A stretch of 64,000 nucleotides of DNA, from assembly GCA_965214705.1 (NCBI GenBank), contig CBDCCI010000002.1, forward strand, positions 2,144,001 through 2,208,000, written 5' to 3'. A program made the translations under genes and the position numbers. Position 1 is the stretch's first letter. Each line of letters begins with the position of its first letter. The DNA comes from Alphaproteobacteria bacterium (GTDB lineage Bacteria; Pseudomonadota; Alphaproteobacteria; UBA828). The notes under the pieces were generated by a model. It had not been told where the DNA came from and searched no databases. It saw nothing but the letters and a program-made list of their open reading frames with translations. Below are positions 36,762-57,905 of the stretch, piece after piece.

Positions 36762-39700
36762 ATGCCTTACCGCATCGCCGTCGACACTGGCGGCACCTTT
36801 ACCGATGTCGTCGTCGCAGCACCCGGCGGCGCGCTCACCGTCGGCAAGGCGCCGTCCACGCCCTTGCGTAGCGCGGACGGGGTCAAGGCGGGCCTCGCCG
36901 ATGCGGCACGGAGCATGGGCATCCCGGTCGAAGCACTGATCGGGGAGGCGGACGTTCTGATCTACGGCACGACCTGGGCGACCAACGCGATCGTCACCGG
37001 GACCACCGCGAAGACCGCCCTTCTGGTGACCGAGGGCTTTCCCGACATCCTGGTCTATCGCCAGGGCGGCAAGCTGCACCCTTTCGAGCTCCACATCGAC
37101 CCGCTCAAGCCCTACGTGCCGCGCCGGCTCACCGCCGAGATCCCCGAGCGGGTGACGGCCGAAGGCGAGGTGGAACGCGCACTGGATGAGGACGCTGCGC
37201 GCGCAGCGCTGACCCGGCTCGCCCGGCAGGGCGTGGAGGCGGTTGCCGTCTGCCTGCTCTGGTCGATCAAGAACCCGACACACGAGGAGCGGTTGGGCGC
37301 CCTGATCGAGGAGACGATGCCGGGCGTCCCCTACACGCTCTCGCACCGGCTCAACCCGATCCTACGCGAGTACCCGCGCGCCTCCTCGGCTGCCATCGAC
37401 GCCTCGTTGAAGCCGCTGATGCAGCGCCATCTACGGGCGCTCCGCGATGACCTCGGCGCCGCCGGGTTTGCCGGCGAGCTCCTGGTCAGCACGGTCTCTG
37501 GCGGCCTGATGCACGTGGAGGATGTCGCCGACCGTCCAATCTTCATGGTCAAGTCGGGCCCGGCGATGGCGCCGCTCGCCGGCATCGCCTACGCGGAGGC
37601 TGAGGGGCTCGGGCGCGACGTGCTGGTGGTCGATGCCGGCGGCACCACCTTTGACGTCAGTATGGTGCGCGACGGCGCGGTCAAATACACCCGCGAGACG
37701 TGGCTGGGCGGGCTCTTCTCCGGCCACAACCTCGGGCTCTCCTCGGTCGACGTGCGGAGCGTGGGTGCGGGCGGCGGCTCGATCGCCTGGATCGACCCCG
37801 GCGGGTTGATGCGCGTGGGGCCCGAGAGCGCCGGTGCCGACCCCGGCCCCGCCTGCTACGGCCGGGGCGGGAACGCGGCGACCGTGACCGACGCCGCCGT
37901 GGTGCTCGGCTACATCGACCCGGACGCCTTCCTCGGCGGGCGCATGAAACTCGACGTGGCCGCCGCCCGGTGCGCCGTGGACGCGCTGGCCGAGCAGCTC
38001 GACATGACGATCGAGGAGACAGCCTCGGCAATCCTCACCCTCGCCAGCGAGACCATGATCAAGGCGATCGAGGAAATCACGGTCAACGAGGGGGTCAATC
38101 CGCGCGAGAGCGTGCTCGTGGCGGGCGGCGGGGCCGCCGGCCTCAACATCCTGCCGATTGCCTCGGCGCTCGGCTGCGAACGGGTGCTACTGCCCAAGAC
38201 GGCGGGCGCGCTCAGCGCCTGCGGCGCGCAGTATTCCGACATCGTCGCCGAGTTCAGCGCGAGCCACTACGTCCGCACCGACCACTGGGACGAAGCGGCG
38301 GTCAACGAAACCCTCGGCGATATCGACGCGCGCATGGAGGCGTTCGCCGACGGCTTGCGGACGCGGGGTATCGCGCGCTTCCGCAAAGATCACTTCGTCG
38401 ACGCCCGCTACCTCAACCAGCAATGGGAAACCGAGATCGCGATGCCGGCCCCGCGCTTCGCGGGCCGCGGCGCCGTCAACGCGCTCATCGGGCATTTCCA
38501 CGAGGTGCACGAGCGGCTCTACGGCGTGAAGGAAGAGAACGGGCTGCTCGAATGCCTGAACTGGAAGGGCCGGCTCACGGCCTTCCTCGACCGGCCCCAG
38601 CCAGCAACGGCGGCAGAGGGCGGCGCTCGCAGCGGGCCGCCTGTACCACGCCGCACGACGCAGGCCTTCTTCGGCGACGCTGGATTCCTGGAGACGCCGG
38701 TCTTTGAGGGCGCGACGCTCGCGGCGGGCGATGCGATCGCCGGCCCCGCCATCATCGAGGAGCCGACCACCACGGTTGTGGTTTACCCCCGGACGCGGGC
38801 GCGGGTCTCGTCCGGCGCCAACTACGTTCTGGAACCGGCGGAAGAGACGGCACGGGCGCCGGCGGAGGGCGCGGAAGAGCTCGACCCGGTGCAGGTCGCG
38901 ATCATGGCCAACCGGATCGACGCGATCCTGCGCGAGATGACCGGCGTGGTGATGCGTACCGCGCGTTCGGCCGTGATCGGCCAGTCACGCGATTTCTCCT
39001 GCGCCATCGTGACGGCCGACAACGAGCTGCTTGCCGCTGCCGAGGGCATCCCTGCCCACATCTACGGCGCCCATCTGCAGACCAGGACCATGTGCCGGGT
39101 GCATCCGGACTTCCGCGAGGGCGACGCCTACCTCCACAACGACCCCTACGACGGCAACAGCCACGCCGCCGACTGGTCGATCATCGTGCCGGTCTTCTGC
39201 GACGGTGAGCACCTGTTCAACGTCACCGTGAAGGGCCATCAGGCCGACTGCGGCGACAGCATCCCCACCACCTACACGCCGCGCGCCCGCGATGTGTACG
39301 AGGAAGGCGCGCTGATCTTCCCCTGCGTGCGCGTGCAGCGCGACTTCCGCGACAATGAGGACATCGTGCGCATGTGCCGCCGGCGCATCCGGGTGCCGGA
39401 CCAGTGGTACGGCGACTATCTCTCGCAGCTCGGCGCGGCGCGCATTGGCGAGCGCCGACTCAAGGCCTTTGCTGCCAAGCATGGCGTGGATCAGATGCGG
39501 CGTTTCATCGAGGCCTGGTTCGACTATGCCGAGCGACGCGCCGATCACGCCATCCGCAGGCTGCCCAGGGGCACGTTGGTCAACAAGGGAATGCACGACC
39601 CGGTGCAGCCCTTCCTGCCCGAGAGCCTGGAGATCACGGTCAAGGTCGGGATCGACCCCGATGAAGGCCGCATCACCGTGGATCTCCGCGACAACCCGGA

Positions 39701-40685
39701 TTGCATCGACGCGGGCCTCAACCTCACCGAGGCTTGCGCGACCGCCAACTGCATCCAGGGCGTGTTCGAGAACCTGGAGTCCGATATCCCGCCCAACGCC
39801 GGCAGCTTCCGCCGCCTCGAGGTCAAGCTGCGCGAGGGCTGCGTCGTGGGCATCCCGCGCTTCCCGCATAGCTGCTCGCTCGCCACCACCAACATGGCGG
39901 ACGTGGTGGTGAACCTGGTGCAATCGGCCTTCACCCAGCTCGGGGACGGCCACGGGCTCGCCCAGGGCAATCTCTGCTTTTCCGCCGGTATGGGCGTGGT
40001 CTCAGGCAGGGACTGGCGGCGCGGCGGGGCCGAGTACATCAACCAGGTGTATCTGATGGGCGGCGGCGGACCGGCGCTGCCCGAGCACGACGGCATGATC
40101 TACCTGCTGACGCCGGGGGGCTGCGGATTGCTGCATCGGGACAGCATCGAGTTCGACGAGCAGCGCTTTCCCATGCTGATTCGCTCGCAGCGGCTCCTCC
40201 CTGATTCGGGCGGCGCGGGGCGCAGGCGGGGTGGGCCTGCGACCGAGGTGATCTTCGGTCCGCGCCGCGACCAGATGACCGTGAGCATCATGGGCGGCGG
40301 GACGATCAACCCGCCCAGAGGCGTGCGCGGCGGCAGCGACGCCAACCACGCCTACCACGGCCACCTGCATGCCGACGGCTCCGAGGACTCGGTTCCGAAC
40401 GGCGTGATGCTGGCACTGGCGCCCGGCGAGTTCGTGCGCTCGGTGGATAACGGCGGCAGCGGCTATGGCGACCCGCTCACCCGCGAGACTGGGCGCGTGC
40501 TGGAAGACGTGGTCGAGGGCTACGTGACCCTAGACCATGCGGAGGCGGTGTATGGCGTGAGGCTCACCGGGCGAGCGGAAGAGGGCACGCTCGCCGTCGA
40601 CGAGTCCGGCACCGCGGAGCACCGCGCCGCATTGGCCGGCGGCGCGGTGCCGCCGCGTAGCGTCAGCCGGTTCGGGCAAGGGTAG
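36762..40685 (+). CDS. Fused hydantoinase/oxoprolinase A+B (ATP-dependent amidohydrolase)
   Basis: DTGGTFTD, SGPAMA, DAGGTTFD, GAGGGS, SAGADPGPACY (A half); SRDFSCA, NDPY.GNSH..D, DSGGAG..RGG, GGSGYGDP (B half). Confidence 0.92.
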   Translation: MPYRIAVDTGGTFTDVVVAAPGGALTVGKAPSTPLRSADGVKAGLADAARSMGIPVEALIGEADVLIYGTTWATNAIVTGTTAKTALLVTEGFPDILVYRQGGKLHPFELHIDPLKPYVPRRLTAEIPERVTAEGEVERALDEDAARAALTRLARQGVEAVAVCLLWSIKNPTHEERLGALIEETMPGVPYTLSHRLNPILREYPRASSAAIDASLKPLMQRHLRALRDDLGAAGFAGELLVSTVSGGLMHVEDVADRPIFMVKSGPAMAPLAGIAYAEAEGLGRDVLVVDAGGTTFDVSMVRDGAVKYTRETWLGGLFSGHNLGLSSVDVRSVGAGGGSIAWIDPGGLMRVGPESAGADPGPACYGRGGNAATVTDAAVVLGYIDPDAFLGGRMKLDVAAARCAVDALAEQLDMTIEETASAILTLASETMIKAIEEITVNEGVNPRESVLVAGGGAAGLNILPIASALGCERVLLPKTAGALSACGAQYSDIVAEFSASHYVRTDHWDEAAVNETLGDIDARMEAFADGLRTRGIARFRKDHFVDARYLNQQWETEIAMPAPRFAGRGAVNALIGHFHEVHERLYGVKEENGLLECLNWKGRLTAFLDRPQPATAAEGGARSGPPVPRRTTQAFFGDAGFLETPVFEGATLAAGDAIAGPAIIEEPTTTVVVYPRTRARVSSGANYVLEPAEETARAPAEGAEELDPVQVAIMANRIDAILREMTGVVMRTARSAVIGQSRDFSCAIVTADNELLAAAEGIPAHIYGAHLQTRTMCRVHPDFREGDAYLHNDPYDGNSHAADWSIIVPVFCDGEHLFNVTVKGHQADCGDSIPTTYTPRARDVYEEGALIFPCVRVQRDFRDNEDIVRMCRRRIRVPDQWYGDYLSQLGAARIGERRLKAFAAKHGVDQMRRFIEAWFDYAERRADHAIRRLPRGTLVNKGMHDPVQPFLPESLEITVKVGIDPDEGRITVDLRDNPDCIDAGLNLTEACATANCIQGVFENLESDIPPNAGSFRRLEVKLREGCVVGIPRFPHSCSLATTNMADVVVNLVQSAFTQLGDGHGLAQGNLCFSAGMGVVSGRDWRRGGAEYINQVYLMGGGGPALPEHDGMIYLLTPGGCGLLHRDSIEFDEQRFPMLIRSQRLLPDSGGAGRRRGGPATEVIFGPRRDQMTVSIMGGGTINPPRGVRGGSDANHAYHGHLHADGSEDSVPNGVMLALAPGEFVRSVDNGGSGYGDPLTRETGRVLEDVVEGYVTLDHAEAVYGVRLTGRAEEGTLAVDESGTAEHRAALAGGAVPPRSVSRFGQG

Positions 40686-40876: not shown

Positions 40877-41498
40877 GTACGGGTCGAGGGCGTCACGCGG
40901 CCTATGCTCCCGCTGTCGAGAGAAGGAGCGCCGCGAGAATGAGGCACACGCCCGTGAGCCAAGCCGCGAATACGGAATACGTCCACATCATCGAGGCGGC
41001 TCCTCACGGCAGAAGCAGATAATTGCCGTTGCAATCAGCCATTTGCTCCGCCTAAACGAGACGGGTACTCCGAACTCACTCATGGGCTTCTCACCTCACA
41101 ACCGGTGCCGTTCTCGAGAATCGAGACCGCGCGTCAGCATCGCAGTGTCAAAGTCGACGGAGACTGGGATCACTGGATAGAGAGAAAGTAGATATAAATT
41201 GGCAAGAAATGTACACAGAATCAATATACTTTGTTGATCTTGAGCTATATCCGTATTGACATATCTAACAACCTAATACTTTGTAATAACAAGATAAAAC
41301 ATATTAGTATATAAATTACATCTTAGAAACTGGCCCGACCAATGCGAAATTGATATGGAGTGGAAAGACCAATGCTCTCTTTCAAACAAGAGAGCATACC
41401 ATCATGGCATATCAACCATGTTATCGCGGTAGGGAACCGGGTTGCCCCGGTCCCCCCGCACAGATCCGGACGGGCGCTGTTCGCATCCGGCTCCTCCC

Positions 41499-44400
41499 TC
41501 AGGTCCTGACGACAAGCCGCTGGTTCGGCCACGGATGACGGATGCTGGCCTTGGGCCAGTGGGCAGCAGTGAGGGGATTGATATCCTCCCACGCGGTGCG
41601 GTCCCGTTGGGACCTTCGCCGCAGGGCACGCATGAGCAGCCGTTTGCATTGGTGCACGAACCGCACCAGATAGCGGCCGCTCCCGGGTACGCCGTAGTAG
41701 TTGAGCCAGCCGTCGATGACCCTTCCCAGCCACTTCGCTGTCTCGTGCCGGTTGTCGTGCCAGCGCTTGCGCAGCCTTTCCGCGATCCCCCGCAGAGTGC
41801 GGTTGACCCGTTTCCGGGATGGCCTGCGGCCGACCCTGAACCGTCCCTTCCTCGACTGGTCGCAGAAGTGCGTCATGCCAAGGAAGTCGAACGTCTCCGG
41901 CTTGCCCTGCCCCCGTGTCCGGCGGTTCGCTTTCGCGTAGCGGCCGAATTCGATGAGCCGGGTCTTGCCCGGATGCAGTTCCAGTCCGTACTGGGCCAGC
42001 CTCTCGCCGAGGTCCCGGAGGAAACGCTTCGCGTCGCCCTCGTGCTGGAAGCCGCACACAAAATCATCGGCGTATCGCACGATGATTGTGTCGCCTCCTG
42101 CCGTCCGTTTGCGCCATGTGTTGTGGAACCAGTCGTCGAGCACGTAATGCAGGTAAACGTTGGCGAGGCAGGGTGAGATTATCCCACCCTGCGGAACGCC
42201 CCTGCCGGTGTCCGTCCAGTCGGTCCCTTCCATGACGCCGGCGTTCAGCCACTTGACGATCAGCCGCATGACCCGCGTGTCTCCGATGCGCCTTTCGAGC
42301 ATCCCGACCAGGTGGTCCCGCCCGAGATTGTCGAAGAACCCGCGGATGTCGGCGTCAACGACCCAGTTGACCTTCCGCCGTTCCATTCCAACCGCCACGG
42401 CGTCGAGCGCGTTATGCGTCCCCCGCCCCGGCCGGAAGCCGTAGCTGAAGCCGAGGAACTCCGTCTCGTAGATCGGCACCAGAATCGTATCCGTCACCGC
42501 CCGCTGGAGTATCTTGTCCTCCAGCGAGGCGATGCCGAGCGGTCGTTGTCCCCCGTCCTCTTTGGGTATGTAGACCCGCCGCGACGGCGGCGCCCGATAC
42601 GCCCCCCTGTGCACACGCCCGTGCAGGTCGACCAAGCGATCTTCCAGCCCGTCGGCGTATGCCTCCCACGTGACGCCGTCCACCCCCGCTGCCGCGTCCT
42701 TTCTCAGCGAATGGTACGCGTCGCGCAGGCAGTCAACCGTCACATGGTGGAGGAGCGCCACGAGACACTCATCCGGGTTCCTCTTTGCAGCCTGTCGTAT
42801 CCGGTCGGCCGCCTGTGACTCGCTTCCCCGCTTCTGCGCGCGGCGCGAGCTTTGGCCTTTCGGATTGCCCTTGGGTCCGCCCCTTCGCTCCCCCGGCTCC
42901 GCCGGCCCCGAGGGGCCGTTGTTCGCCGGCTTCATTGCTGTCGGGTCGGAGGAGGCGCCCCGCGAGGCTAGCCTCCGTCCGCCGCTCAAACGGCCCGTAC
43001 GGTTTTCCCGTAAGCCGCTTTCACAAAGGTGTCTCAACGAAGGTTCAAGGACGGAACCAGTGAGATCAGGCGAACAAGCCCGTATTCGTCGATCAGCTTG
43101 CGCTCCGGCAACTGTTTCCAGCCAGCGTTGCGCCAGCGCTTGCGACGATGCGACCAGAGCCGCCGCACGATCCAGCCGTCAAGCTGGTGGAAGAGCCCGC
43201 GGACGTGGGCCTTGCAATAGTATTGGCCCCATCCCCGAATGATCGGGTTGATCTCGTCAATCAGCTCCTGCGTGCTGACAGGAGCCTTGCGCCGGGTACG
43301 CTGGCGAATCTGGTCCTTGAAGTGCCGGATGGATTTCTCACGCGGAACCGCGTAGCGCGCTCCCCCGCGAACCCCGCTCTTGATCTTGGAGGACGACAGC
43401 CGGAGAGGCCGCTCGCCCTGCTTGATCTTGTAGCCGAGGAACTCAAACCCGTGCCTGACATGGACAATGCGGGTCTTCCCGGCGTTGAGGGACACACCCA
43501 GCTTTGCCAGAATCCGCCTGGCCGTCTCCAGTGCTGCGCGGGCTTCCCCGCGTGTGCGGCACGTGATCAGCCAATCATCGGCGTATCGCGTTAGTCGATA
43601 GCCGCGACGACGCATTTCCCAATCGAACGGGGTCAGCAAGATATTGCTGAGCAGCGGTGAAACGATGCCGCCCTGCGGAGTGCCCTGTTCGGTCGGCAGC
43701 CTCTTACCGTCGGCCACCACCCCGGCCGTGAGCATCTGCCTGAGCAGACCTAATACCCGGCCATCCGAGACTCGCTGGTTGACGAGTTCGAGGAGCTTTT
43801 CGTGGTCCACGGACCCGAAAAAGTCTTTCAAATCCGCATCGAGAACCCACTCGTTGCCCTCGTCCAGTTCCCTCCATATCTTGCGTAACGCTCCATGGGC
43901 AGACCTTCCTTGCCGGTACCCGTAGTTGGCATCGTCGAACACCGGCTCGAAGATCGGTTCCAGCCGGTTCAGCAGCGCCTGCTGGCACACCCGGTCGTAG
44001 ATTGTCGGGATGCCGAGCGGGCGGAACTTCCCCGGCTGGCCCGCCTTGGGGATCAGGCATTGGAGAACCGGCTGCGGGTGATACTCACCGTCCCGCAACT
44101 CCCGGTGCAGGCGATCGAGATTTGCATCCAGCGATGCCTCGAACGCCGCTAAATCCTCTCCGTCCACGCCACCGGCACCCCGGTTGCGCTTCACCTTTTC
44201 CCAGGCCACCTCAAGGTTCTTCCGCTTGTACACCTTGTCCACCAGTGAGTGGACCTTCCTGTCACCCGCCGGGTTGATCCAGTCGATGAGTCTCCTCGGG
44301 CCATGATGTCCGGGTCTTTCGCTCAAGGAACTTGTCCGCGTCATGGTCCTTACTCACTCATCGCTGTCTCTCGCCGACCACCTCTGCCAACCGACTTCCC

Positions 44401-45001
44401 CGGCCCACACGGCCGCCGCTCGCGCGGTCACCCGGCTTTCGCCGGGCTTCAGGTACTATTCGGTTGTCCGATTGCTCGCCGCGCATCCTTTCCCATTTCG
44501 CCTTTCGGCTTATAGGGTCCGTTATCCCGGTGCCACCCGGGAACGCGGCGAGCCCTCCTGGGGTCACGTCCAGATCTTCCGTACCGTGCCGCTCGCAAAC
44601 ACCTTGGTGCGACGGGTGGGTAAGAACGCCTTCGCCGCCATAGTGCCGGCTCGACCTTGCCCCGTCTTTGGCCGACCGATTCATCATGGGGTGGCCCCCT
44701 CGATTACGGCCCGGTACTTCTCCGCAAGCCCTTCAGATTCCACCTCGCGGTGGACACCCTGCCTTCCGGTTGTCTTTCGACAGTGGACCAACTTAGCTCC
44801 TCCCTTGGCTGTCTCCGCCGTTTCCGGCTTCGTGCCCGTTTAGAGTTTCGCTTATCGGCTCACTCCGGCCAGTGAGGAATTACCCCCACTTTTGGATATG
44901 GCGCCCCTTACCCGAGCGCCAGTGGGACTTGAACCCACCTGATCTGGGCGCTGCCCAGCACACACTATGGGCGAATCTGATTTCTTCGAACCGTACATCA
45001 T
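41499..45001 (-). CDS. ltrA: Group II intron RT/maturase of intron A; join 45001-44964 + 42939-41499, 492 aa after intron B splices; no endonuclease domain
   Basis: AAGVDG, RPLGI, FSYGFRPGR, DADIRGFFD, GVPQGG.ISP, RYADD, FDFLG; joined length 1479 nt equals the joined right copy. Confidence 0.9.
42940..44963 (-). mobile_element. Group II intron B (2024 nt) nested in intron A (twintron)
   Basis: 5' GTGTG at 44963; DV AAGCGGCTTACGGGAAAACCGTACGGGCCGTTT and 3' end CCGACCCGAC at 42940; removal restores CCCATAGT|AGCAATG as in the right copy. Confidence 0.92.
43034..44344 (-). CDS. ltrA: Group II intron RT/maturase of intron B (intact, class F-like, no endonuclease domain)
   Basis: KVHSLVDKVY, GAGGVDG, RPLGIPT..DR, YGYRQGR, DADLKDFF, GTPQGG.VSP, RYADD, FEFLG, NPIIRGW. 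Confidence 0.93.
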   Translation of the reverse strand: MTRTSSLSERPGHHGPRRLIDWINPAGDRKVHSLVDKVYKRKNLEVAWEKVKRNRGAGGVDGEDLAAFEASLDANLDRLHRELRDGEYHPQPVLQCLIPKAGQPGKFRPLGIPTIYDRVCQQALLNRLEPIFEPVFDDANYGYRQGRSAHGALRKIWRELDEGNEWVLDADLKDFFGSVDHEKLLELVNQRVSDGRVLGLLRQMLTAGVVADGKRLPTEQGTPQGGIVSPLLSNILLTPFDWEMRRRGYRLTRYADDWLITCRTRGEARAALETARRILAKLGVSLNAGKTRIVHVRHGFEFLGYKIKQGERPLRLSSSKIKSGVRGGARYAVPREKSIRHFKDQIRQRTRRKAPVSTQELIDEINPIIRGWGQYYCKAHVRGLFHQLDGWIVRRLWSHRRKRWRNAGWKQLPERKLIDEYGLVRLISLVPSLNLR

Positions 45002-45359
45002 TGGGTTGCGGTATAGCTCCTTTCCTTAGCGGCCCCGCACGACCGCGGGGCAGTTCGAAGACCTCCCAGGTCCCGGTGGACTGCTTCGGCACGTGCCATG
45101 GTTCTTAGACCCCGCAGAGCCCCTGCTCGCCTCACCAAAACGGCTCACAGGGTGTTGCCTTCGGCTAATCTGACAGCCTCGGCACCCCGGTTGAATCAGG
45201 TTTCGTGGCTCAATAGCCCGGCCCGTGCCTGCCGCTTCCCAACGCTTCGCCTGCCGCCTCGCGACGACCGGCGCATGGGTCGCGGAGAAAGTGGTCGGTT
45301 CACCTCTCTTTCTGCCGGGACTTCCACCCGGCGACATTCCACCAGTTTGCCTGGCGCAC

Positions 45360-47749
45360 CAGACTTCCTGACCTCTGCTGATTTGGGGTGATGCGGTTTG
45401 CGTGGATTCCGGGGCTGCGGCGACCTCGTAGACCATGCGCAGTTCGGTCCCGGGGAAGACGGTTTCGGTGGCGTTGAGCTCGCTCAGGAGGGCATCGATC
45501 TGGCGGTCGCAGGCGTCATTTGCGAGGCCGAGAATATGGACCCGGAGAACGCCGTTGGCGGGGTCCGGCAGGATGTCGGCATCGGCGGCCAAGAGAGCCT
45601 GAAGCAGTTTCCGGGGATGAGGCTTCTTGCCTTGTCCCTGCATGACGGGGAGCATCATGCGGGTTTCGGCGCGGTAGGCGATCATGCGGATGACGTCGAG
45701 GAGGAGACGGTCGCGTGAGGGCAGGGCATCGAGCTGTCGGTCTTCGTCGAGGTCGCCGGCCCGACAGTGCTTCGGCACGTTCCTGCGGCTGGCCTTGGCG
45801 ATCTCGAGGGCGCCCTCGAGGTCCCTGACCTCGCTCCTGAGCTGCGCCGTCGGCCTCTTTTTCCTGGCCGCGCCGGCGATCCGGTTGCGCAGGCGGGCGA
45901 GCCGGCGTTCGGCGCTGCGGATTGCCTTGTCGTAGGCCCGCCGGAGCGGGTTGACGACCATGGTGTCGGGAGCGAGCGGCTCGAGTTGGTGGGTCGGCAG
46001 GGCGTCGAGGTTGAACTCGTCGCGCATGTACTTGAAGAAGTTTTCCTGCGACCAGCGCGAGACCATGGCGCCTGCGGCCTCGCCCATCGGTTTGTGCGGA
46101 TCGGTGACGATGAAGGGGATCTGGCGGCCGTTGTCCAGCAGGCGGCGGATCTGGCGCACCCTGAAGCCGTTCGGCAACGTCACCGGCTTTTCGGCCAGCC
46201 GCAAGGCGGCGGTGCCGCTCGTCGCCGGTCCGTGAATAGGAACGGTCGTCGCGCTGAAGTCCTCGACCGGCCAATCCTCGCCGCTGAAGTTCTTGTGCCA
46301 GGTCAGGCAAGCGATGCCGCGCCTCGCCAGCCGGCGGAACAGCTCCGGGCTCCAGCCCTCGCGGTCGAAGACCAGGGTGAGCGCGGGGTGGCCGGGCGCC
46401 TGTGCGGTCAGGTCCGGCGCCTGAGCATCGACGATCCCGAGCTCCTGCAGCGCCGCCACCACGTCGGCTTCGATGGCGGCGACCATCTTCGGATCCAGCG
46501 TCTTGTGCAGACAGAGCAGGGGTTTGCCGCCCAGGGCATTGATCCAGTAGCTGGCGCTGGCCGGCAGGCACAGCTTCTGGCGCGAGACGAAGTGTTTCGG
46601 CAGGCGTCCCTTGCGGCCGGCGTAGACCTTGACGTGCCCGTCGACGGCCAGCGTCGCCCAGAGCTCCGGCTCGTCGGCCTGCCAGCGCCTGGCAAGGGCG
46701 AGCTGCCAGGCCCGCACGCCGGCCTCGTCGTTGGCGATCAGCGCGATCTTGCGCCGCAGCGTCTTGACCTCGGGGCAGCGGTCGAGGCCGAGAATGGCGC
46801 CCCATTCGCCCGGCGGCCGGTAGCGCAGGCTCTCGGGATTGCGCACCCGCGCCAAGCTCATGAAGGCCAGGAAGAGCAGGATCGTGTTCAGGCCGTAATA
46901 GCCCTTCGGCAGCGGTGGCAGGACCTCGGTCGCGGCCAGCAGGCCTTCCTTGAGCAGAGCCGGCAGGGCGGTGAGAACGCCACCTGAGCGCACCCCGCGG
47001 GCGGCGCTGCCGAACTGCGGATCGACCGGCCCCGCCTGCCCGCAGCTGGCCAGCACCCGGCCCGAAACATCGCAGGTCGCGCGCCCCATCGGCGCCTGCC
47101 GGTCGCGCCGGTCGCGTGCGGTGCGATCGGTCTGCGGCCCGGCGTCGATGGGGCCTGGTGAGCGGCTCTGCGCCGGTTCCGTCAGGGGCGGCGCTTCCGG
47201 TCGTACCGTCTCGGACCCGGGGGCGCCGGCACCGTCATCGTCGACGCGCCGCTCAACCGCATCGGGCGGTGGACCCTGCGCCGAACCCCCGGGCTCCTGC
47301 GCCGCCTTGCCGATCAGCCCCTGCCGGCGCCACTTGTTGACCGACGCCACCGACACGCCCAGAACCCGGGCCACCGCAGAGCCGCTCAGGCCCGCTTCCA
47401 GCAACGCTGTCGCCTTCTCGGCCAGTTCCGGTGTGAACACCGACGGCCCGCGACCGCGCCGGGGTTTCAGAAACGCCGCTTCACCCTCGGCCAGGTAGCG
47501 CCGCCGCGCGCGCAGCACGGTCGCGCGCGAGACACCGAACGCGTCGACCAGATCCCGTTGCGCGATGTCGCTGACCACCGCGAGCCGGCCAATCCGCATG
47601 AGCATGGCGGCACGGTCATCGGCGGGGTGGCTGTCGAACGGAACGAGATTGGAGAAGTAGGTGAAGGTGTCGTCGGAGATCAGGACGGCGAAGCAGCTGT
47701 TGCCGATCGGAACCGCTTCTGGGGGGCAAATCGGGAGGGTGATGGGCAT
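45360..47749 (-). CDS. Putative DDE transposase, 796 aa; stop codon TG|A completed by base 41422 after splicing
   Basis: N-terminal HTH motifs, VDGHVKVY, VFDREG, RWSQENFFKY acidic motifs; frame reaches GGT CAG GAA GTC TG at the TIR. Confidence 0.8.
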
Positions 47750-47903
47750 GGCTCAGGCCGCCGAATCTGCGTCACCATAAAATAGCAGATTCCGCCGTGC
47801 CGATCAACGAAAACCTGGCCTGAAACGGGAAGAAAGCGGGGAATTTCAACGAGTTCCCGACGCACCGATCCGCATCGCCAAGGCCATGAGGTCAGGAAGT
47901 CTG
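45360..47903 (-). mobile_element. Insertion sequence of unassigned family (2544 bp), 16-bp perfect TIR CAGACTTCCTGACCTC
   Basis: TIRs at 45360-45375 and 47888-47903; direct repeat ATGTT at 41418-41422 and 52483-52487 lies outside the introns. Confidence 0.88.
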
Positions 47904-49602
47904 GTGCGCCAGGCAAACTGGTGGAATGTCGCCGGGTGGAAGTCCCGGCAGAAAGAGAGGTGAACCGACCACTTTCTCCGCGACCCATGCGCCGGTCGTC
48001 GCGAGGCGGCAGGCGAAGCGTTGGGAAGCGGCAGGCACGGGCCGGGCTATTGAGCCACGAAACCTGATTCAACCGGGGTGCCGAGGCTGTCAGATTAGCC
48101 GAAGGCAACACCCTGTGAGCCGTTTTGGTGAGGCGAGCAGGGGCTCTGCGGGGTCTAAGAACCATGGCACGTGCCGAAGCAGTCCACCGGGACCTGGGAG
48201 GTCTTCGAACTGCCCCGCGGTCGTGCGGGGCCGCTAAGGAAAGGAGCTATACCGCAACCCAATGATGTACGGTTCGAAGAAATCAGATTCGCCCATAGTA
48301 GCAATGAAGCCGGCGAACAACGGCCCCTCGGGGCCGGCGGAGCCGGGGGAGCGAAGGGGCGGACCCAAGGGCAATCCGAAAGGCCAAAGCTCGCGCCGCG
48401 CGCAGAAGCGGGGAAGCGAGTCACAGGCGGCCGACCGGATACGACAGGCTGCAAAGAGGAACCCGGATGAGTGTCTCGTGGCGCTCCTCCACCATGTGAC
48501 GGTTGACTGCCTGCGCGACGCGTACCATTCGCTGAGAAAGGACGCGGCAGCGGGGGTGGACGGCGTCACGTGGGAGGCATACGCCGACGGGCTGGAAGAT
48601 CGCTTGGTCGACCTGCACGGGCGTGTGCACAGGGGGGCGTATCGGGCGCCGCCGTCGCGGCGGGTCTACATACCCAAAGAGGACGGGGGACAACGACCGC
48701 TCGGCATCGCCTCGCTGGAGGACAAGATACTCCAGCGGGCGGTGACGGATACGATTCTGGTGCCGATCTACGAGACGGAGTTCCTCGGCTTCAGCTACGG
48801 CTTCCGGCCGGGGCGGGGGACGCATAACGCGCTCGACGCCGTGGCGGTTGGAATGGAACGGCGGAAGGTCAACTGGGTCGTTGACGCCGACATCCGCGGG
48901 TTCTTCGACAATCTCGGGCGGGACCACCTGGTCGGGATGCTCGAAAGGCGCATCGGAGACACGCGGGTCATGCGGCTGATCGTCAAGTGGCTGAACGCCG
49001 GCGTCATGGAAGGGACCGACTGGACGGACACCGGCAGGGGCGTTCCGCAGGGTGGGATAATCTCACCCTGCCTCGCCAACGTTTACCTGCATTACGTGCT
49101 CGACGACTGGTTCCACAACACATGGCGCAAACGGACGGCAGGAGGCGACACAATCATCGTGCGATACGCCGATGATTTTGTGTGCGGCTTCCAGCACGAG
49201 GGCGACGCGAAGCGTTTCCTCCGGGACCTCGGCGAGAGGCTGGCCCAGTACGGACTGGAACTGCATCCGGGCAAGACCCGGCTCATCGAATTCGGCCGCT
49301 ACGCGAAAGCGAACCGCCGGACACGGGGGCAGGGCAAGCCGGAGACGTTCGACTTCCTTGGCATGACGCACTTGAACGAAGCCGCTACGCGGAGTTAGCG
49401 GCGTAGAGTTCATTCATTTCCGAGGCGTCGCGGGTGCCGTTTGTTCTGTGCGTTCGCTTCCCGGTTGCGTCAGTGGCGCTCCGCCCGTCGGGTGGCGGAT
49501 CCCCAGCAGCCTCCCGATCACCAGTGGTTAGCATCGACCCCTGCGACGGACCGTCGCCGGATCGGTCCGGCGGCGCGCCGTCGCGATCCAGGGAGATCGA
49601 TA

Positions 49603-50481
49603 ATGACCGGGACCGCGTGCGACACGAACACCGTCACCCCTCTTCGCCAGCGCATGGAGGAGCAGCTCCGCATCGCCAATCTGGCCGCGAGCACGTCCAA
49701 GGCCTACATCTGCGAGATCAAGAACCTGGCCAGGTACTACGACGCCTCGCCGGACGAGCTCGACGCCGAGCAGGTGCGCCAGTGGTACCTGGGGCGGATC
49801 GACAAGGGGCTCAGTCCGGGCACGACCAACGTCTCCTTCGCCGCGCTGAACTTCCTCTACATCGACACACTCGGCTGGCCTGACCATGTCGCCGGCCTGC
49901 GCTCCCGCAAGAAGCCCGGCAAGCTGCCGCGCTACATGTCGGAGCAGGAGGTCGAGCACCTCATCCTTGCGACACCCGACCTCCGCCACCGTGCTGCCAT
50001 TGTCACCGGCTATGGCGGCGGGCTCCGCATCTCCGAGACCTTGGCCATCAAGGTCGGCGACATCCTGTCGGAGAAGAAGCTGCTGCACATCCCCTCCGGC
50101 AAAGGCGGCACCGAGAGAATGGCACCGTTGCCGGACATCGTCATCCACTACTTGCGCGTCTACTACAGGAACATCTGGCCGCGTCCGACGAGCTGGCTCT
50201 TCTACGGCGTCTCGCTCGACAGGCCCATCGCAACGGAGACCTTGCAGGCCGCCTTCAGGAGGGCGCGCGACATTGCCGAGCTCGACCGCAGCTACACCTT
50301 CCATTGCCTGCGCCATTCGGCGGCGACCCATCTCCTCGAGCGCGGCGGCGATATCGAGGTGATCCGGGACATGCTCGGCCATCGAAGCGCGAACACGACC
50401 CGTCACTACGCCCGCGTCACCGGCAAGATGTTCGAGGGCCTCGACCACCCGATCTCAGGCTTCGCAGCGTTGCGCAACTGA
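49603..50481 (+). CDS. Tyrosine recombinase/integrase with N-terminal SAM-like domain
   Basis: TPLRQRM, YGGGLRISE, GKGG.ER, HCLRHSAATHLLE, MLGH, TT.HY catalytic residues. Confidence 0.93.
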   Translation: MTGTACDTNTVTPLRQRMEEQLRIANLAASTSKAYICEIKNLARYYDASPDELDAEQVRQWYLGRIDKGLSPGTTNVSFAALNFLYIDTLGWPDHVAGLRSRKKPGKLPRYMSEQEVEHLILATPDLRHRAAIVTGYGGGLRISETLAIKVGDILSEKKLLHIPSGKGGTERMAPLPDIVIHYLRVYYRNIWPRPTSWLFYGVSLDRPIATETLQAAFRRARDIAELDRSYTFHCLRHSAATHLLERGGDIEVIRDMLGHRSANTTRHYARVTGKMFEGLDHPISGFAALRN

Positions 50482-50487
50482 CGGCGC

Positions 50488-51729
50488 GTGGAGGCCGAAC
50501 GCGCGGGCGTGGCGGAGATCTTCCGCCGCGCCGGCGCCGCTTTCCGTGAGCGCCACAAAGGGCGCATCGACGCCGCCCGGCTCAAGGTCATGGGCGCCAT
50601 CGAGGCGTGCCGCACCGCCGTGCTCGGCGGCCACATGTACGCCTGCGAGGGCTGCGGGCGCGAGCATCCGCTCTTCAACTCCTGCCGCAACCGCCACTGC
50701 CCCACCTGCCAGGGTCTCGCCGCCAACCTCTGGAGCGAGGAGCGCGCCGGGGACATCCTGCCGGTGCCCTACTTCCATGTGGTCTTCACCCTGCCCAAGG
50801 AGGTTGCCGCCATTGCCTTCTGCAACCGCAGGGTGGTGTTCGACATCCTCTTCCGGGCCGTCGCCGAGACCCTGCGCACCATCGCCGCCGATCCCCGCCA
50901 CGGCGGCATGCGCATCGGCGGCACCGCGGTCCTCCATACCTGGGATCAGAAGCTCCGCTTCCACCCGCACCTGCACGTGGTCGTGCCCAACGCGGGCTTC
51001 GACGTAGACAGTGGCGAGTGGAAGACGGGGAGCACCACCTTCCTCGCCCCCGTCAAGGTCCTCGGCAGCCTGTTCCGCCGCCTCTTCCTCGAGGAGCTCG
51101 CCCGCGCCCACGGCCGGGGGGACCTGGAGTTCCACGGCACCGTCGCCCACCTCGCCAATCCCGGCGAGTTCCACGCCACGCTTGCCGCCGCCCGGGCCAG
51201 GGACTGGGTGGTCTACGCCAAGCGGCCCTTCCGCGGGCCTGAGCAGGTCTTCCGGTACCTCTCGCACTACACGCACAGGATCGCCATCTCCGACAGCCGC
51301 ATCGTCTCCTTCGACGGCGAGACGGTCTCCTTCCGCCACCGAAAGCCCAAGGCGCCGGGGCAGAGAAAGCCGCGCTACGGCATCGCCACCGTGAGCGCCG
51401 ACGAGTTCATCCGCCGCTTCCTGAGGCACGTCCTGCCGGACGGCATGCACCGCATTCGCTACTTCGGCATCCTCGCCAACGGCTGCCGCGCCAGCACGCT
51501 GGAGAGAGCACGCCAGGCTCTCGGCGCCCTCGGCTGCGCCGCCCCCGAGGGAAGCGTGGACGGCGCTCAGGCCGAGCCCGACGAAGAGCCCGAGATCGGC
51601 ACCGCGCCCGTGGCCTGCCCCCACTGCGGCGGCGTCATGCGCCTCGTCCGCGAAATCCGCCGCCGCCATGAGCCCCGCTCGACGCGCGGCCCGCCGGCGC
51701 TGCCGCCGACCCACAGGGGGAAACCGTGA
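50488..51729 (+). CDS. IS91 family (Y2 HUH) transposase
   Basis: Zn motif CRT..LGG, SCRNRHCPTCQ, HUH HPHLH, Y2 motif YLSHYTHRIAIS, RIRYFGILAN, C-terminal CPHCG. Confidence 0.93.
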   Translation: MEAERAGVAEIFRRAGAAFRERHKGRIDAARLKVMGAIEACRTAVLGGHMYACEGCGREHPLFNSCRNRHCPTCQGLAANLWSEERAGDILPVPYFHVVFTLPKEVAAIAFCNRRVVFDILFRAVAETLRTIAADPRHGGMRIGGTAVLHTWDQKLRFHPHLHVVVPNAGFDVDSGEWKTGSTTFLAPVKVLGSLFRRLFLEELARAHGRGDLEFHGTVAHLANPGEFHATLAAARARDWVVYAKRPFRGPEQVFRYLSHYTHRIAISDSRIVSFDGETVSFRHRKPKAPGQRKPRYGIATVSADEFIRRFLRHVLPDGMHRIRYFGILANGCRASTLERARQALGALGCAAPEGSVDGAQAEPDEEPEIGTAPVACPHCGGVMRLVREIRRRHEPRSTRGPPALPPTHRGKP

Positions 51730-52673
51730 GACGGCCGCTCGCTTCGGCCCCGCGCAACGGCGCCAAAGCGCCGACGCACGACCGAACCTGTCTCCGCTTG
51801 AGCCGGGCTGACAGCCCTCGGCTCACACCCCGCTCAGTCCTCGCAGCGTGCGCCCGCATGCCTGCCGAAAGACCGGCGCGAGCGTCGATTTTATGCGCAA
51901 CTCTGCTGCCGGTGGATGCCGCCTGACGCTGACATCAGCGCACTTTCCACATAGCTCAACTTCGCCTCTCGTGGCCCGCGGCTTCGTTCAAAAGGGTTGG
52001 GCAGGCTCTCGAGAGAGAGCCTGCCCAACCCTTAACCTTCTGCGACCAGTCGAGGAAGGGACGGTTCAGGGTCGGCCGCAGGCCATCCCGGAAACGGGTC
52101 AACCGCACTCTGCGGGGGATCGCGGAAAGGCTGCGCAAGCGCTGGCACGACAACCGGCACGAGACAGCGAAGTGGCTGGGAAGGGTCATCGACGGCTGGC
52201 TCAACTACTACGGCGTACCCGGGAGCGGCCGCTATCTGGTGCGGTTCGTGCACCAATGCAAACGGCTGCTCATGCGTGCCCTGCGGCGAAGGTCCCAACG
52301 GGACCGCACCGCGTGGGAGGATATCAATCCCCTCACTGCTGCCCACTGGCCCAAGGCCAGCATCCGTCATCCGTGGCCGAACCAGCGGCTTGTCGTCAGG
52401 ACCTGAGGGAGGAGCCGGATGCGAACAGCGCCCGTCCGGATCTGTGCGGGGGGACCGGGGCAACCCGGTTCCCTACCGCGATATGTTACAGCGTAATCTC
52501 TTGGGAACACCATGAGATTTCATGGGAATTTCATCACCTAATAGTCTTGATTCTAGAGGGAAAACCGGCCCGACCTTCCATGCCACGTGTGCGACTCGGG
52601 GCGCGGTGGAGACGGGGCAACTGGTCGACTACCATTGGGGTCGAACGGGAAAGCCTCGGGGAGGGCCGGTGCC

Positions 52674-53849
52674 ATGCGTTACAGCGACTCTAGGATCCTC
52701 ACCACGCACGCCGGCAGCCTGGCGCGGAACCCGGAGCTTAGCGCCCTGCTGATCCGGCAGGACCACGGCAAGCCGGTCGACCCTGCGGCGCTCGACGCTG
52801 CGATTCGCGCGCGCACCCGGCACGTCGTCGCGCGCCAGCTTGAGAGCGGCATCGACATCGGCGGGGACGGCGAGCAGGCCCGCGCCGGCTATTCGACCTA
52901 TCCGGCCCAGCGCATGAGCGGCTTCGGCGGGAGCTCCAGCCGCAACGACCTGCTCGACTTCGAGAAGTTCCCCCTCTACGCCGAGGCCTACCGCGAGGCC
53001 TTTCGCACCAACCCGGAGGAACGCACGCGCATCGTCAACGCGCCGCAGGCGGTGGCCGAGGTGAGCTACGACTCGGCCTGCGCCGGCGTGCGCGCGGAGT
53101 GCGATGCCTTCGATGATGCGCTCGCTGGGCAGGAAGCGGGCTTCGCCGAGACCTTCGTGACCGCCGCCTCCCCAGGCTGCGTGCTGACCATCATGCACAA
53201 TGCCCACTATGCGTCGGACCGTGACTACCTCTTCGCGCTCGCACGGGAGCTGAAGACGGAATACGAGTTCATCGTCTCGCGCGGCCACCTGCTGCAGATC
53301 GACGCGCCGGACCTCGCCATGGAGCGCTATCTATACTTCCGCGATGCGCCGGATGCCGCCTTCCTCGCCAGCGTGGAAGACCACATCGAGGCGCTCAACA
53401 TGGCGCTCGCCGATGTGCCGCGCGAGCGTGTGCGTCTGCACGTGTGCTGGGGTACCTGGGACGGGCCGCATGCCGACGACACGCCGCTCGCGCCCCTCCT
53501 GCCCCGCCTCTACGAGGCCAAGGTGGGCGCGCTCAACATCCCCTTCGCCAATCCCGGCCACCAGCACGAGTACGAGACGGTGCGCAGGAACCCGCCGCCC
53601 GAGTCGATGGTGCTGATCCCCGGCGTGATCGACAACATGACCAAGCACCTGGAGCATCCGGAGGTCGTGGCCGAGCGCATCCAGCGCGCGGTGGACGCGG
53701 TAGGAGAGCGCGAACGCGTGATCGCGGGCGTGGACTGCGGCTTCGCCGTCTTCACCGACAACGCGATGATGACCGAGGACATCTGCTGGGCGAAGTTCCG
53801 CGCGCTGCGCGCCGGTGCGGATCTCGCCAGCAGCCGACTGTGGGGTTAG
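52674..53849 (+). CDS. Cobalamin-independent methionine synthase II family protein (MetE C-terminal-like)
   Basis: RILTTHAGSL, GDGE, LQIDAPD, LHVCWG, PGVID, EHPEVVAERI, DCGF. Confidence 0.88.
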   Translation: MRYSDSRILTTHAGSLARNPELSALLIRQDHGKPVDPAALDAAIRARTRHVVARQLESGIDIGGDGEQARAGYSTYPAQRMSGFGGSSSRNDLLDFEKFPLYAEAYREAFRTNPEERTRIVNAPQAVAEVSYDSACAGVRAECDAFDDALAGQEAGFAETFVTAASPGCVLTIMHNAHYASDRDYLFALARELKTEYEFIVSRGHLLQIDAPDLAMERYLYFRDAPDAAFLASVEDHIEALNMALADVPRERVRLHVCWGTWDGPHADDTPLAPLLPRLYEAKVGALNIPFANPGHQHEYETVRRNPPPESMVLIPGVIDNMTKHLEHPEVVAERIQRAVDAVGERERVIAGVDCGFAVFTDNAMMTEDICWAKFRALRAGADLASSRLWG

Positions 53850-55745: not shown

Positions 55746-57905
55746 CCCAAGTTGGCACTTTTTCCGACCAGCCGAGCCTGTTCGAGCCAGTTTTGCGGCG
55801 CTGAACCACTAGATGTTGGGGTTGGAGGACACCTGAGACCCACATTTGCCATTCGTGGTCCTGGAAGCCAATTGTGGGGCCAGGACTTTGGAGTTGAGTC
55901 GATATCCCTCTTGCCAGATGCCGCGAACGCCGTGTATGCGAAACAGGCATCGCAGAAACGGCGCCGCCATGTACATCAAGGCAACCAGGACACACACCGA
56001 CAAGGCCGGCCAGCCGGTCCGAAGCCATCGCCTCGTGCTCGCCCAGCGCGTCGGCGACAAGGTGCGCCACAGGACGCTGCTCAATCTCGGCACCGACTAT
56101 CCGGTGCCGCGCGAGAAGTGGAAGGCCGTCACCGAACTCGCCGAGGCGCTGCTTCACGGCAAGCCGCCGCTGTTCGAGGGCGAGGCGGATGTGCGGGCCG
56201 CAGCCGAGGACATCGTCGCCAAGCTCAGGGCCAGGGGGTTCCGCGTCGAGGCGATGCAGGAAGAGGCGCGCAAGCCCGACATCGCCACCGTCGACCTCGA
56301 TACCCTGGAGCACGAGAACCCGCGCACGGTCGGCTGCGAGCGCCTGTGCCTCAAGGCCCTCGACGCCCTCGGCTTCGCCGAAATCCTCCACGGCCTCGAC
56401 ATCAAGGGCCGCGACGGGCGCATCGCCAGCGCGCTGATCGTCGCCAGGATGGTCCATCCCGCCAGCGAGCGTGATACCAGCCGCTGGCTCCGCCACGACA
56501 GCGCGGCCGCCGAGCTCCTGGGCCTGGAGGGCGACCGCAAGGCGCTGCGGCGCAAGACGCTCTACCGCATCGGCGACCTGCTCTGGCGCCACCGCGCCGC
56601 CATCCAGCGGGAGCTGTTCAACCGTGAGCGCGCACTGCTCGACCTGCCCGAGACGATCGCCTTCTACGATCTCACCAACGTCCACTACCACGGCCACACG
56701 GGCGGCGAGCTTCCCAGGTTCGGGCGCTCCAAGCAGAAGCGCGACGACTGTCCCCTCATCACGCTGGCGCTGGCGCTCGACGGCGCGGGCTTCCCGCGCA
56801 GTTGCGAGATCCTGCCGGGCAACGTGAGCGAGCCGGGCACGCTGCACGAGGCGCTGGCGCGGCTCGAGGCGGTGTGCGGCGGCACGGCGCCGAAGCCCAC
56901 GGTGGTCATGGACGCGGGCATCGCCACCGAGAAAAACATCGCGTGGCTGGGCGAGCAGGGCTACGACTGGATCGCGGTCAGCCGCGGTGCCAGGCCTGCG
57001 CCGCCCGAGGGCGGACCCGAGGCCCTGCTGATCACCAGCGCGCGCCACGAGGTGCGGGCCTGGCGGCTTGCCAGCGAGGACGGCGAGGCGCGGCTCTACG
57101 TCGTCAGCGAGGGCAAGAAGAAGGCCGAGAACGCGATCATCGGCCTGAGGCGGAACCGCTTCGAGGCGGCGCTGGAAAGGCTCCACGGCGGCCTTGCGGT
57201 CAAGGGCCGCCTCAAGCGCTACGACAAGGTGCTGGAGAGCATAGGCCGCCTCAAGCAGCGCTTCTCCGCCGTCGCCAGGCACTACGAGATCACGGTCGAG
57301 AGGGCGAAAACCGGCCCCAATGCCACCGCCGTGCGCTTCAAGCGCAGGCCGCGATACGACGAGGCCGATGAGGGCGCCGGTGCCTATGTGCTGCGCACCA
57401 GCCACGTCGACTGGGACATCGAGACGGTCCTGCGGACGTACTGGCGGATCACGGATATCGAGGCGACATTCCGGAGCCTGAAATCCGAGCTCGGCCTTCG
57501 CCCGATCTGGCACCAGCTCGACCGGCGCATCGCGGCCCACCTGCTGATCGCCGTGCTGGCCTACCACGCCGTGCATCTGATCCGTACCCGGCTGGCCGCG
57601 CGCGGCATCCACAAGTGCTGGGCGTCGATCCGCGAGAGCATGCGGACCTGGGTGCGGATCACCACGCGCCTGCGCCAGACCGACGGCACCTTGATCGTCA
57701 ACCGCCAGGACACGCGCCCGGCCGCCGAGGTTGCCGCAATCTCCTCGGCGGCGGGCGTGGACCCCGCCATCCACCGCACGAGGACCCGTCTGATGAGCTG
57801 ACAGAATCTCACAAAATGTGGGGCCATGTTGGAATCGACCGAGAAAAATATCGCGTTGAATCAAACCAATAGGGAACACAGGCAGCGGAAAAGTGCCAAC
57901 TTGGG
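55746..57905 (+). mobile_element. IS1634-family element, copy 1 (2160 bp, 4-bp TSD CAAG)
   Basis: TIR CCCAAGTTGGCACTTTT; CAAG at 55742-55745 and 57906-57909. Confidence 0.92.
55969..57801 (+). CDS. IS1634-family DDE transposase
   Basis: YDLTN, FGRSKQKR.DCP, VVMDAGI, IEATFRSLKSELGLRPIWHQ. Confidence 0.9.
   Translation: MYIKATRTHTDKAGQPVRSHRLVLAQRVGDKVRHRTLLNLGTDYPVPREKWKAVTELAEALLHGKPPLFEGEADVRAAAEDIVAKLRARGFRVEAMQEEARKPDIATVDLDTLEHENPRTVGCERLCLKALDALGFAEILHGLDIKGRDGRIASALIVARMVHPASERDTSRWLRHDSAAAELLGLEGDRKALRRKTLYRIGDLLWRHRAAIQRELFNRERALLDLPETIAFYDLTNVHYHGHTGGELPRFGRSKQKRDDCPLITLALALDGAGFPRSCEILPGNVSEPGTLHEALARLEAVCGGTAPKPTVVMDAGIATEKNIAWLGEQGYDWIAVSRGARPAPPEGGPEALLITSARHEVRAWRLASEDGEARLYVVSEGKKKAENAIIGLRRNRFEAALERLHGGLAVKGRLKRYDKVLESIGRLKQRFSAVARHYEITVERAKTGPNATAVRFKRRPRYDEADEGAGAYVLRTSHVDWDIETVLRTYWRITDIEATFRSLKSELGLRPIWHQLDRRIAAHLLIAVLAYHAVHLIRTRLAARGIHKCWASIRESMRTWVRITTRLRQTDGTLIVNRQDTRPAAEVAAISSAAGVDPAIHRTRTRLMS

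Follow-up and report, generated by a model that had tools for sequence, protein, structure and literature searches.

A transposase stop codon split by a group II intron: a probable by-product of stacked mobile elements

How does a transposase gene come to have its stop codon divided by an intron, and does the division serve the gene? The question is raised by a stretch of 64,000 nucleotides (hereafter the window) from contig CBDCCI010000002.1 of the alphaproteobacterial assembly GCA_965214705.1, where the transposase reading frame of an insertion sequence (IS) runs directly into a group II intron, intron A, which in turn is interrupted by a second one, intron B. An earlier note on this DNA had proposed that intron A splits the stop codon as TG/A, that spliced and unspliced RNA yield products of 796 and 907 amino acids, and that splicing could modulate transposase activity. 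Our analysis makes it highly probable that the locus is a stack of mobile elements and that the split stop codon is a by-product of the stacking. The note had missed a second copy of intron A, a duplication of the target ATGTT around the whole unit, and the origin of the completing A in the target.

The split stop codon and its counterparts in related elements

The IS is 2,544 bp long (45360..47903, minus strand) and each of its ends carries a perfect terminal inverted repeat, GAGGTCAGGAAGTCTG, 16 bp or more in length. Its transposase gene (45360..47749, minus strand) starts with the ATG at 47749 and extends to 45360 over 796 codons plus 2 nt, a stretch free of stops on translation. The frame closes with GGT CAG GAA GTC TG (45373..45360), of which the TG constitutes the final two bases of the IS, and then enters GTGCGCC, a group II 5' end that begins at 45359 and reads downward. 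The first minus-strand base after intron A, at 41422, is an A. Ligated exons would thus read GAAGTCTG joined to AACATGG (predicted as RNA, GAAGUCUG joined to AACAUGG), with TGA as the junction codon. In unspliced RNA the junction codon is instead TG+G, or TGG (tryptophan); termination is lost, and the frame stays open for 111 further codons into the intron, producing a minus-strand open reading frame (ORF) of 907 amino acids (47749..45026). Frame, Rfam match and base 41422 all bear out the geometry and the coordinates that had been given for the split stop and its two products, and, as far as the sequence can tell, the dependence of termination on splicing is real for this IS copy. The account of the completing base holds in part: splicing would restore TGA, but the A comes from the target duplication, as its first base, and not from the IS.

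Where do intron-free relatives terminate? Among 8,000 candidates scored, 2,294 were related to the transposase at E <= 0.001. The expectation that intron-free homologues end in GQEV followed by a stop is largely borne out, because 15 of the 18 closest ones (P0002-P0019; 74-96% identity) end in ...RGQ[E/K/D][V/I/L] at the same residue, the three ending elsewhere being P0005, P0014 and P0017. At the DNA level, a genome scan for IS relatives comprised 67 loci (L001-L067) in 7 metagenome-assembled genomes (MAGs), belonging to Thalassobaculaceae, unclassified Alphaproteobacteria, Rhodobacterales and a Spirochaetia bin. The elements in this set measure 2,380-2,536 bp and have the same ends, and their intron-free right ends read ...GGTCAGGAAGTC TGA NNT. 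The junction codon is TGA after at least 100 open codons in 50 of the 61 copies with an identifiable right end (4 of the 7 assemblies), and an in-frame stop occurs 5, 19 or 39 codons earlier in the other 11 (3 assemblies). Identical 5-bp flanks were present at 33 of the 53 loci with both ends; all conform to ANNNT and most to ARNYT. Consistently, A at position +1 and T at position +5 accompany 139 of 146 distinct matches to the end motif, a set that allows up to 2 mismatches and includes chance matches. By this comparison, the stop codon in the IS lineage of the window normally straddles the element boundary, with TG supplied by the IS and A by the target. More distant relatives in the Spirochaetia MAG OZ253572.1 (L060-L064; 57% identity) keep the terminal GGTCAGGAAGTCTG and ANNNT and have an internal TGA stop 5 codons earlier, which argues that the boundary stop codon is confined to some lineages.

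Assembly CAXXVO01, an alphaproteobacterial MAG in which the Transposase_29 IS is highly expanded, contributes 44 of the 67 loci. Flanks are mismatched at 20 of the 53 loci with both ends, consistent with recombination between IS copies, and some copies adjoin or lie within others; at L009, for example, the right flank meets another left end after 5 bp.

To which family does the transposase belong? In a Pfam search, PF21804 (Transposase_29) matches the 907-residue ORF (1.3e-105) behind N-terminal helix-turn-helix domains, and it is the sole full-length family match of the transposase. No IS family model of NCBIfam scored above its cutoff; only the helix-turn-helix region was hit, by IS630 (31.9 bits, cutoff 100) and IS481 (18.9 bits, cutoff 224). 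The candidate DDE residues D370, D462 and E569 are invariant in an alignment of 23 sequences. A PDB sequence search with the transposase gave no match. The AlphaFold model built from the 23-sequence alignment is poor (pLDDT 56), and the top six Foldseek matches to it are all Tn5 transposase, at E ~1e-3 and TM 0.13-0.26. This modelling hints weakly at a Tn5-like fold, as a lead and not as a classification. Plasmid relatives were found neither by blastn with the IS DNA nor by tblastn with the transposase.

Intron A at both ends of the insertion sequence

Is the position of intron A a property of the transposase gene or of the IS? The intron is present twice. Copy 1 (41423..45359, minus strand) has 1,913 nt of its own sequence, split by intron B, and runs from 5' GUGCG to 3' ...CGAU. 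Copy 2 (47904..52482, plus strand) occupies the other end of the IS, which no ORF crosses. It is directed outward, in antisense to the transposase gene, and is without intron B, and its reverse transcriptase (RT) ORF is broken by an inserted element. The ends GUGCG and ...CGAU are identical in copy 2 and fit the GUGYG and AY boundaries of group II introns, and the junction of GAGGTCAGGAAGTCTG with GTGCGCC recurs at 47888..47910. Both copies match the full-length Rfam model RF02005 (group-II-D1D4-6; 154.2 bits, gathering score 49), at 45324..45100 and, on the plus strand, at 47939..48163. The intact RT/maturase of copy 1 (41499..42935, minus strand; 478 aa) scores 339.9 bits with TIGR04416 (cutoff 300) and contains RVT_1 and GIIM; no endonuclease domain was detected in it. 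Its best homologues are 84-88% identical. Compared with plasmids, intron A shows only 65-69% DNA identity, and the protein identity of its RT to those of plasmid-borne introns reaches no more than 57%.

A repeat finder resolves the two copies into three inverted blocks of 100% identity, of 412, 1,074 and 447 nt (44964-45375 with 47888-48299, 41866-42939 with 48300-49373, and 41422-41868 with 52037-52483). The gaps between the blocks reveal two private insertions, namely intron B in copy 1 and a 2,666-nt stretch in copy 2. The latter (49374..52039, plus strand) lies in the RT gene of copy 2 and holds a tyrosine-recombinase ORF (49441-50481) and an IS91-type Y2 transposase ORF (50488-51729), with Pfam matches to Phage_integrase (6.7e-33), Y2_Tnp (3.3e-54) and Zn_Tnp_IS91 (4.2e-30). 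Its terminal CTT repeats the CTT preceding it, and a long hairpin lies at its end (about 51990-52036). Perfect inverted repeats of 1.9 kb are hard to assemble, and a second intron copy or the inverted layout might conceivably have arisen from mis-joined repeats. Since each copy has its own private insertion and both outer flanks share the expected ANNNT duplication, we regard such an artefact as most improbable.

The plus-strand flanks of the whole unit, ...CAACCATGTT ending at 41422 and ATGTTACAGCG starting at 52483, share the 5-bp direct repeat ATGTT, which fits ANNNT. The left repeat (41418..41422, plus strand) ends with the base whose minus-strand complement is the A that completes TGA, and the right repeat (52483..52487, plus strand) begins the flank. 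We also considered assigning the A at 41422 to the intron and rejected this, because the upper flank would then start with T, in violation of both the ANNNT rule and the 5-bp duplication. From the fact that ATGTT flanks the outer ends of the introns, and not visibly those of the IS, one might conclude that intron, IS and intron form a single mobile unit, with the 1.9-kb inverted intron copies as long terminal repeats, which inserted whole and thereby made the duplication. However, the same picture would result if the introns had entered precisely at the border of IS end and duplication. The outer intron ends (...CGAU) are moreover unlike the inverted repeat, and all 53 relatives with both ends found stop at GTCTG beside ANNNT and are free of introns. 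We therefore attach hardly any credence to a composite unit.

What, then, places intron A exactly at the tip of the IS? Two exon-binding sites (EBS) in its domain I can be paired with intron-binding sites (IBS) in the 5' exon. EBS2, CCUGAUU (45200..45194, minus strand), is complementary to IBS2, GGUCAGG (45373..45367), and EBS1, CAGAUU (45172..45167, minus strand), to IBS1, AGUCUG (45365..45360). The two pairings, of 7 and 6 bp, span the terminal 14 nt of the IS, and a further pair could form between the U at 45173, directly before EBS1, and the A at +1. Both sites fall in variable single-stranded regions of the Rfam domain I model, and UCAGAUU (45173..45167) lies in a hairpin loop. Two related introns, chance finds in the fetched loci that reside in non-IS contexts (L003, 173 bits; L005, 130 bits), allow a comparison by eye. 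Their homologous EBS1 loops match their own 5' exons (UCCAUA with UGUGGA in L003, UAAUCG with CGGUUA in L005), and EBS2 pairing with the own exon is seen in L003 only. This covariation of EBS1 supports the EBS assignments and hence the tip of the IS plus A as the homing site of intron A. Because this site lies inside the inverted repeat, each IS would offer two of them, on opposite strands. The 14-nt end motif has only two sites in the window, inverted relative to each other, and both are occupied by the intron. Judged by these pairings and by the identical copy at the other end, where nothing is terminated, the position of intron A is set by the terminal sequence of the IS and not by the ORF.

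These observations bear directly on whether the split stop is a selected switch, in which splicing efficiency would set the ratio of active 796-residue transposase to 907-residue read-through protein and thereby regulate transposition. Such a switch would draw on the true loss of termination in unspliced RNA, where TG+G encodes tryptophan, unlike in the groEL introns, where UA+G is described to preserve a stop (PMC12584367), and on the intron having the orientation of the transposase gene. Yet an identical copy is present at the opposite end of the IS, where it interferes with no ORF; an intron was found in no other copy of the IS family; and pairing with the inverted repeat fully accounts for its placement. 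The 111-residue read-through tail (query residues 790-907) had neither a relative nor an IS-intron fusion among 5.8 billion proteins, with lengths of 498-1588 aa covered, which argues against a selected 907-residue isoform. The identical intron at the ORF-free end, the tail without relatives and the lack of an intron at all 146 other end-motif matches together lead us to view the split codon as a by-product and not as a regulatory device. We consider a selected switch improbable, and the proposal that splicing regulates transposase activity is unsupported. More favourable to the earlier note is its idea that the transposase transcript supplies intron A with expression. At this end the orientation is shared, and the transcript could therefore feed the intron.

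Intron B within intron A

How specific is the second insertion? The limits of intron B (42940..44963, minus strand; 2,024 nt, GUGUG...GAC), which lies in domain IV of intron A copy 1, follow from the uninterrupted copy 2. It encodes an RT/maturase of 436 aa (43034..44344, minus strand; TIGR04416, 383.8 bits) and ends in a D5/D6-like fold (z -2.2). Its insertion point lies 4 nt upstream of the intron A RT start codon (42935). In copy 2, this point and the ATG are located in the loop of a small predicted hairpin, UUCGCC/GGCGAA, in domain IV and outside the catalytic core. An EBS1 of sequence ACUAUGG (44644..44638) is complementary to CCAUAGU (44970..44964), directly before the insertion point, and the predicted spliced junction is CCCAUAGU joined to AGCAAUG. 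GAAUCUG, a tentative EBS2 candidate of intron B, falls within a motif that the Rfam D1D4-3 model shows as conserved; UGAAUC is an alternative. The central pair of GAAUCUG across the window, L069, L070 and L071 is U:A, a C/A mismatch, U:G and C:G, respectively.

Plasmid relatives of intron B were found in four records (at least 80% coverage, 67-71% identity), including a full-length relative at 71% with the same ends; aligned 3' ends of such relatives match RF00029 with 36.8-40.9 bits. The first, in Paraburkholderia hospita (L069, NZ_CP024940.1, 3501-5525), has a D1D4-3 match (140 bits) on one side and, on the other, an RT ORF with a D5/D6 match (43 bits). The Microvirga sp. VF16 copy (L070, NZ_CP069355.1, 2501-4446) is preceded by a D1D4-6 match (129 bits), and 4 nt separate its end from an ATG, the host RT having been replaced by IS genes. 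In B. barranii (L071, NZ_CP088103.1, 2501-4462) a GTG lies 4 nt beyond the end of the intron, and the sequence holding it is homologous to the host of L072; no host ribozyme was detected at this locus. Finally, the relative in Bradyrhizobium sp. 62B (L072, CP092842.1, 2501-4340) ends 4 nt before a second annotated ltrA, with a D5/D6 match downstream. EBS1 CACUAUGG is common to all five members of the family, and a RUAGU 5' exon is found in the window, L069, L070 and L071, the 5' end of L072 not having been recovered. All four plasmid relatives are thus nested within a second group II intron or adjacent to one. Three of them end 4 nt before an ATG or GTG at which a host RT ORF starts or started, and two Rfam types, D1D4-3 and D1D4-6, are represented among the host ribozymes. 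By these sequences, the intron B lineage recurs at this position within host introns, which suggests that it is specialised on introns.

Order of events, precedents and implications

We envision the following history. A DDE-type Transposase_29 IS would have inserted at ATGTT, an ANNNT site on the margin of an AT-rich spacer, and its frame, reaching the last IS base, would have terminated with TG from the IS and the first target base A. Intron A would then have retrohomed into both IS tips, using the last 14 nt of the inverted repeat and the A at +1, such that both copies came to lie exactly at the boundary between IS and target. Later insertions would have been those of intron B, by homing into domain IV of copy 1, and of an IS91-type element in the RT gene of copy 2; alternatively, copy 2 may derive from RNA from which intron B had already been spliced out. 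Transcripts of the transposase would run into intron A copy 1. Removal of B would restore domain IV of A, and subsequent removal of A would restore TGA. The anatomy, the pairings and the stop-codon rule among relatives are read from the sequences themselves, and it is from them that we infer transcription, splicing, its order and an effect on transposition. The notion of two ordered splicing events had already been put forward in the earlier note. The order B before A is plausible by analogy, given the position of B in the predicted hairpin loop 4 nt upstream of the RT start of A, and a precedent is described in Trichodesmium (PMC4649490).

The insertion site lies in a spacer of roughly 240 bp within 41100-41422, which is AT-rich (GC 0.39 compared with about 0.65 around it). 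A terminator-like hairpin (41372-41397, minus strand) is located 25 nt downstream of the restored stop codon, and a promoter scan of 41000-53000 found no sigma-70-like site. Just upstream of the insertion site lies a gene for a fused hydantoinase A/B of the oxoprolinase type (36762-40685; 1,307 aa), and the flanking genes look chromosomal and not part of a mobile element. A direct repeat of 300 nt (56007-56306 and 58899-59198; 88% identity, spacing 2,892 nt) is unrelated to the finding.

Several points weigh against this history. Homing to IS ends rests on one IS with two sites and on base pairing, and the 146 end-motif matches in other genomes, none of which is followed by an intron, offer no second example of an intron at the end of this IS family. 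An intron without endonuclease that occupies both strands requires priming on both strands or a change in the direction of replication. The 100% identity of the two intron A copies could also reflect gene conversion. Two ribozyme matches remain below their gathering scores: the D5/D6 match of intron A to RF00029 (34.2 bits, E 8e-4, gathering score 40), an alignment to the full-length model over 41495..41423 that ends at the splice site, and the domain I match of intron B to RF02001 (D1D4-3; 21.4 bits, gathering score 32). Finally, a 5-bp ANNNT duplication is indistinguishable from an IS that ends in A and makes a 3-bp duplication inside A-NNN-T, in which case the intron would lie 1 nt inside the IS; we have adopted the 5-bp duplication as the simpler description. 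We nevertheless hold the mobile-element stack to be by far the best account of the locus.

How does this stack relate to known systems? As far as the cited accounts go, there is a published precedent for each layer. The closest in layout is RmInt2, copies of which are described within the inverted repeats of ISRm17 in Sinorhizobium meliloti GR4, with two sites per IS on opposite strands (PMC4615759). RmInt2 is reported there to have an endonuclease-less relative with an IS as its target, too. The likeness is one of layout, namely the IBS region in the inverted repeat and the sites at both ends on opposite strands. The two cases differ in IS family, and here the intron follows directly on the final base of the IS and divides a stop codon that straddles the boundary. 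That an IS can serve as the homing site of a bacterial group II intron, as for intron A, is likewise documented for RmInt1 in ISRm2011-2 (PMC1802570) and for E.c.I4 in IS3-like transposase genes (PMC3522654).

Split stop codons, too, have been described. The groEL-type introns of subgroup IIB1 (Avi.groEL, EcKTE56.groEL) lie between the second and third bases of the stop codon, where the first intron G keeps the stop as UAG (PMC12584367). In contrast to that account, the host gene here encodes a transposase and the stop is lost until splicing. Nor does intron A belong to this start/stop-codon clade, as it is without the clade's large domain-I insertion: in copy 2, just 400 nt (47904..48303) reach from the 5' splice site to the RT start, and the Rfam model begins at intron nt 36. 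For IS870 and ISMt1 the stop codon is reported to be made from the CTAG target, and for IS1239 from the flank (PMC13630536). These elements resemble ours in that no complete transposase stop lies inside the element and the target supplies it; they differ in that here the target gives the third base only, by way of the ANNNT preference, and in IS family.

A group II intron that has homed site-specifically into another is also familiar. Sequential, inner-first splicing was shown for the T.e.I7/I8 twintron of Trichodesmium, which its authors in 2015 called the only bacterial twintron in a protein-coding gene (PMC4649490). In the literature on Methanosarcina, site-specific homing into other group II introns is described, and several bacterial twintrons are mentioned as known (PMC4424553). 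Compared with these descriptions, the present twintron interrupts a transposase stop codon, and its inner lineage recurs 4 nt before host RT starts on unrelated replicons. In the open-access literature we found no description that combines introns at both element boundaries, a stop codon that straddles the boundary and a twintron.

What follows from this arrangement? The current understanding of group II introns and of transposase control is unchanged by it. The locus is a clean natural case of layered selfish elements, in which the ends of an IS are the homing site of one intron and this intron is in turn that of another; if splicing is confirmed, the twintron would be a second bacterial one inside a coding sequence. 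It also documents an IS family so far represented only by a Pfam entry, with its ANNNT target and its target-completed stop, and it provides a natural 15-nt target (14 nt of the IS end plus A) for studying how an endonuclease-less intron uses both strands. One may go further and propose that intron A is adapted to an IS lineage whose choice of ANNNT guarantees the A at +1 required by the intron and that, in addition, intron B belongs to a lineage living only inside group II introns; we entertain this pair of proposals tentatively and incline to doubt that both hold. If they did, every transposition would make two fresh homing sites for intron A, and the IS ends would stay whole, with the intron exactly at the cleavage junction, such that the IS could leave without its intron. 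Intron B, in turn, would have as its homing site the hairpin that surrounds the RT start codon of its host, in no fewer than two types of ribozyme (Rfam D1D4-6 and D1D4-3).

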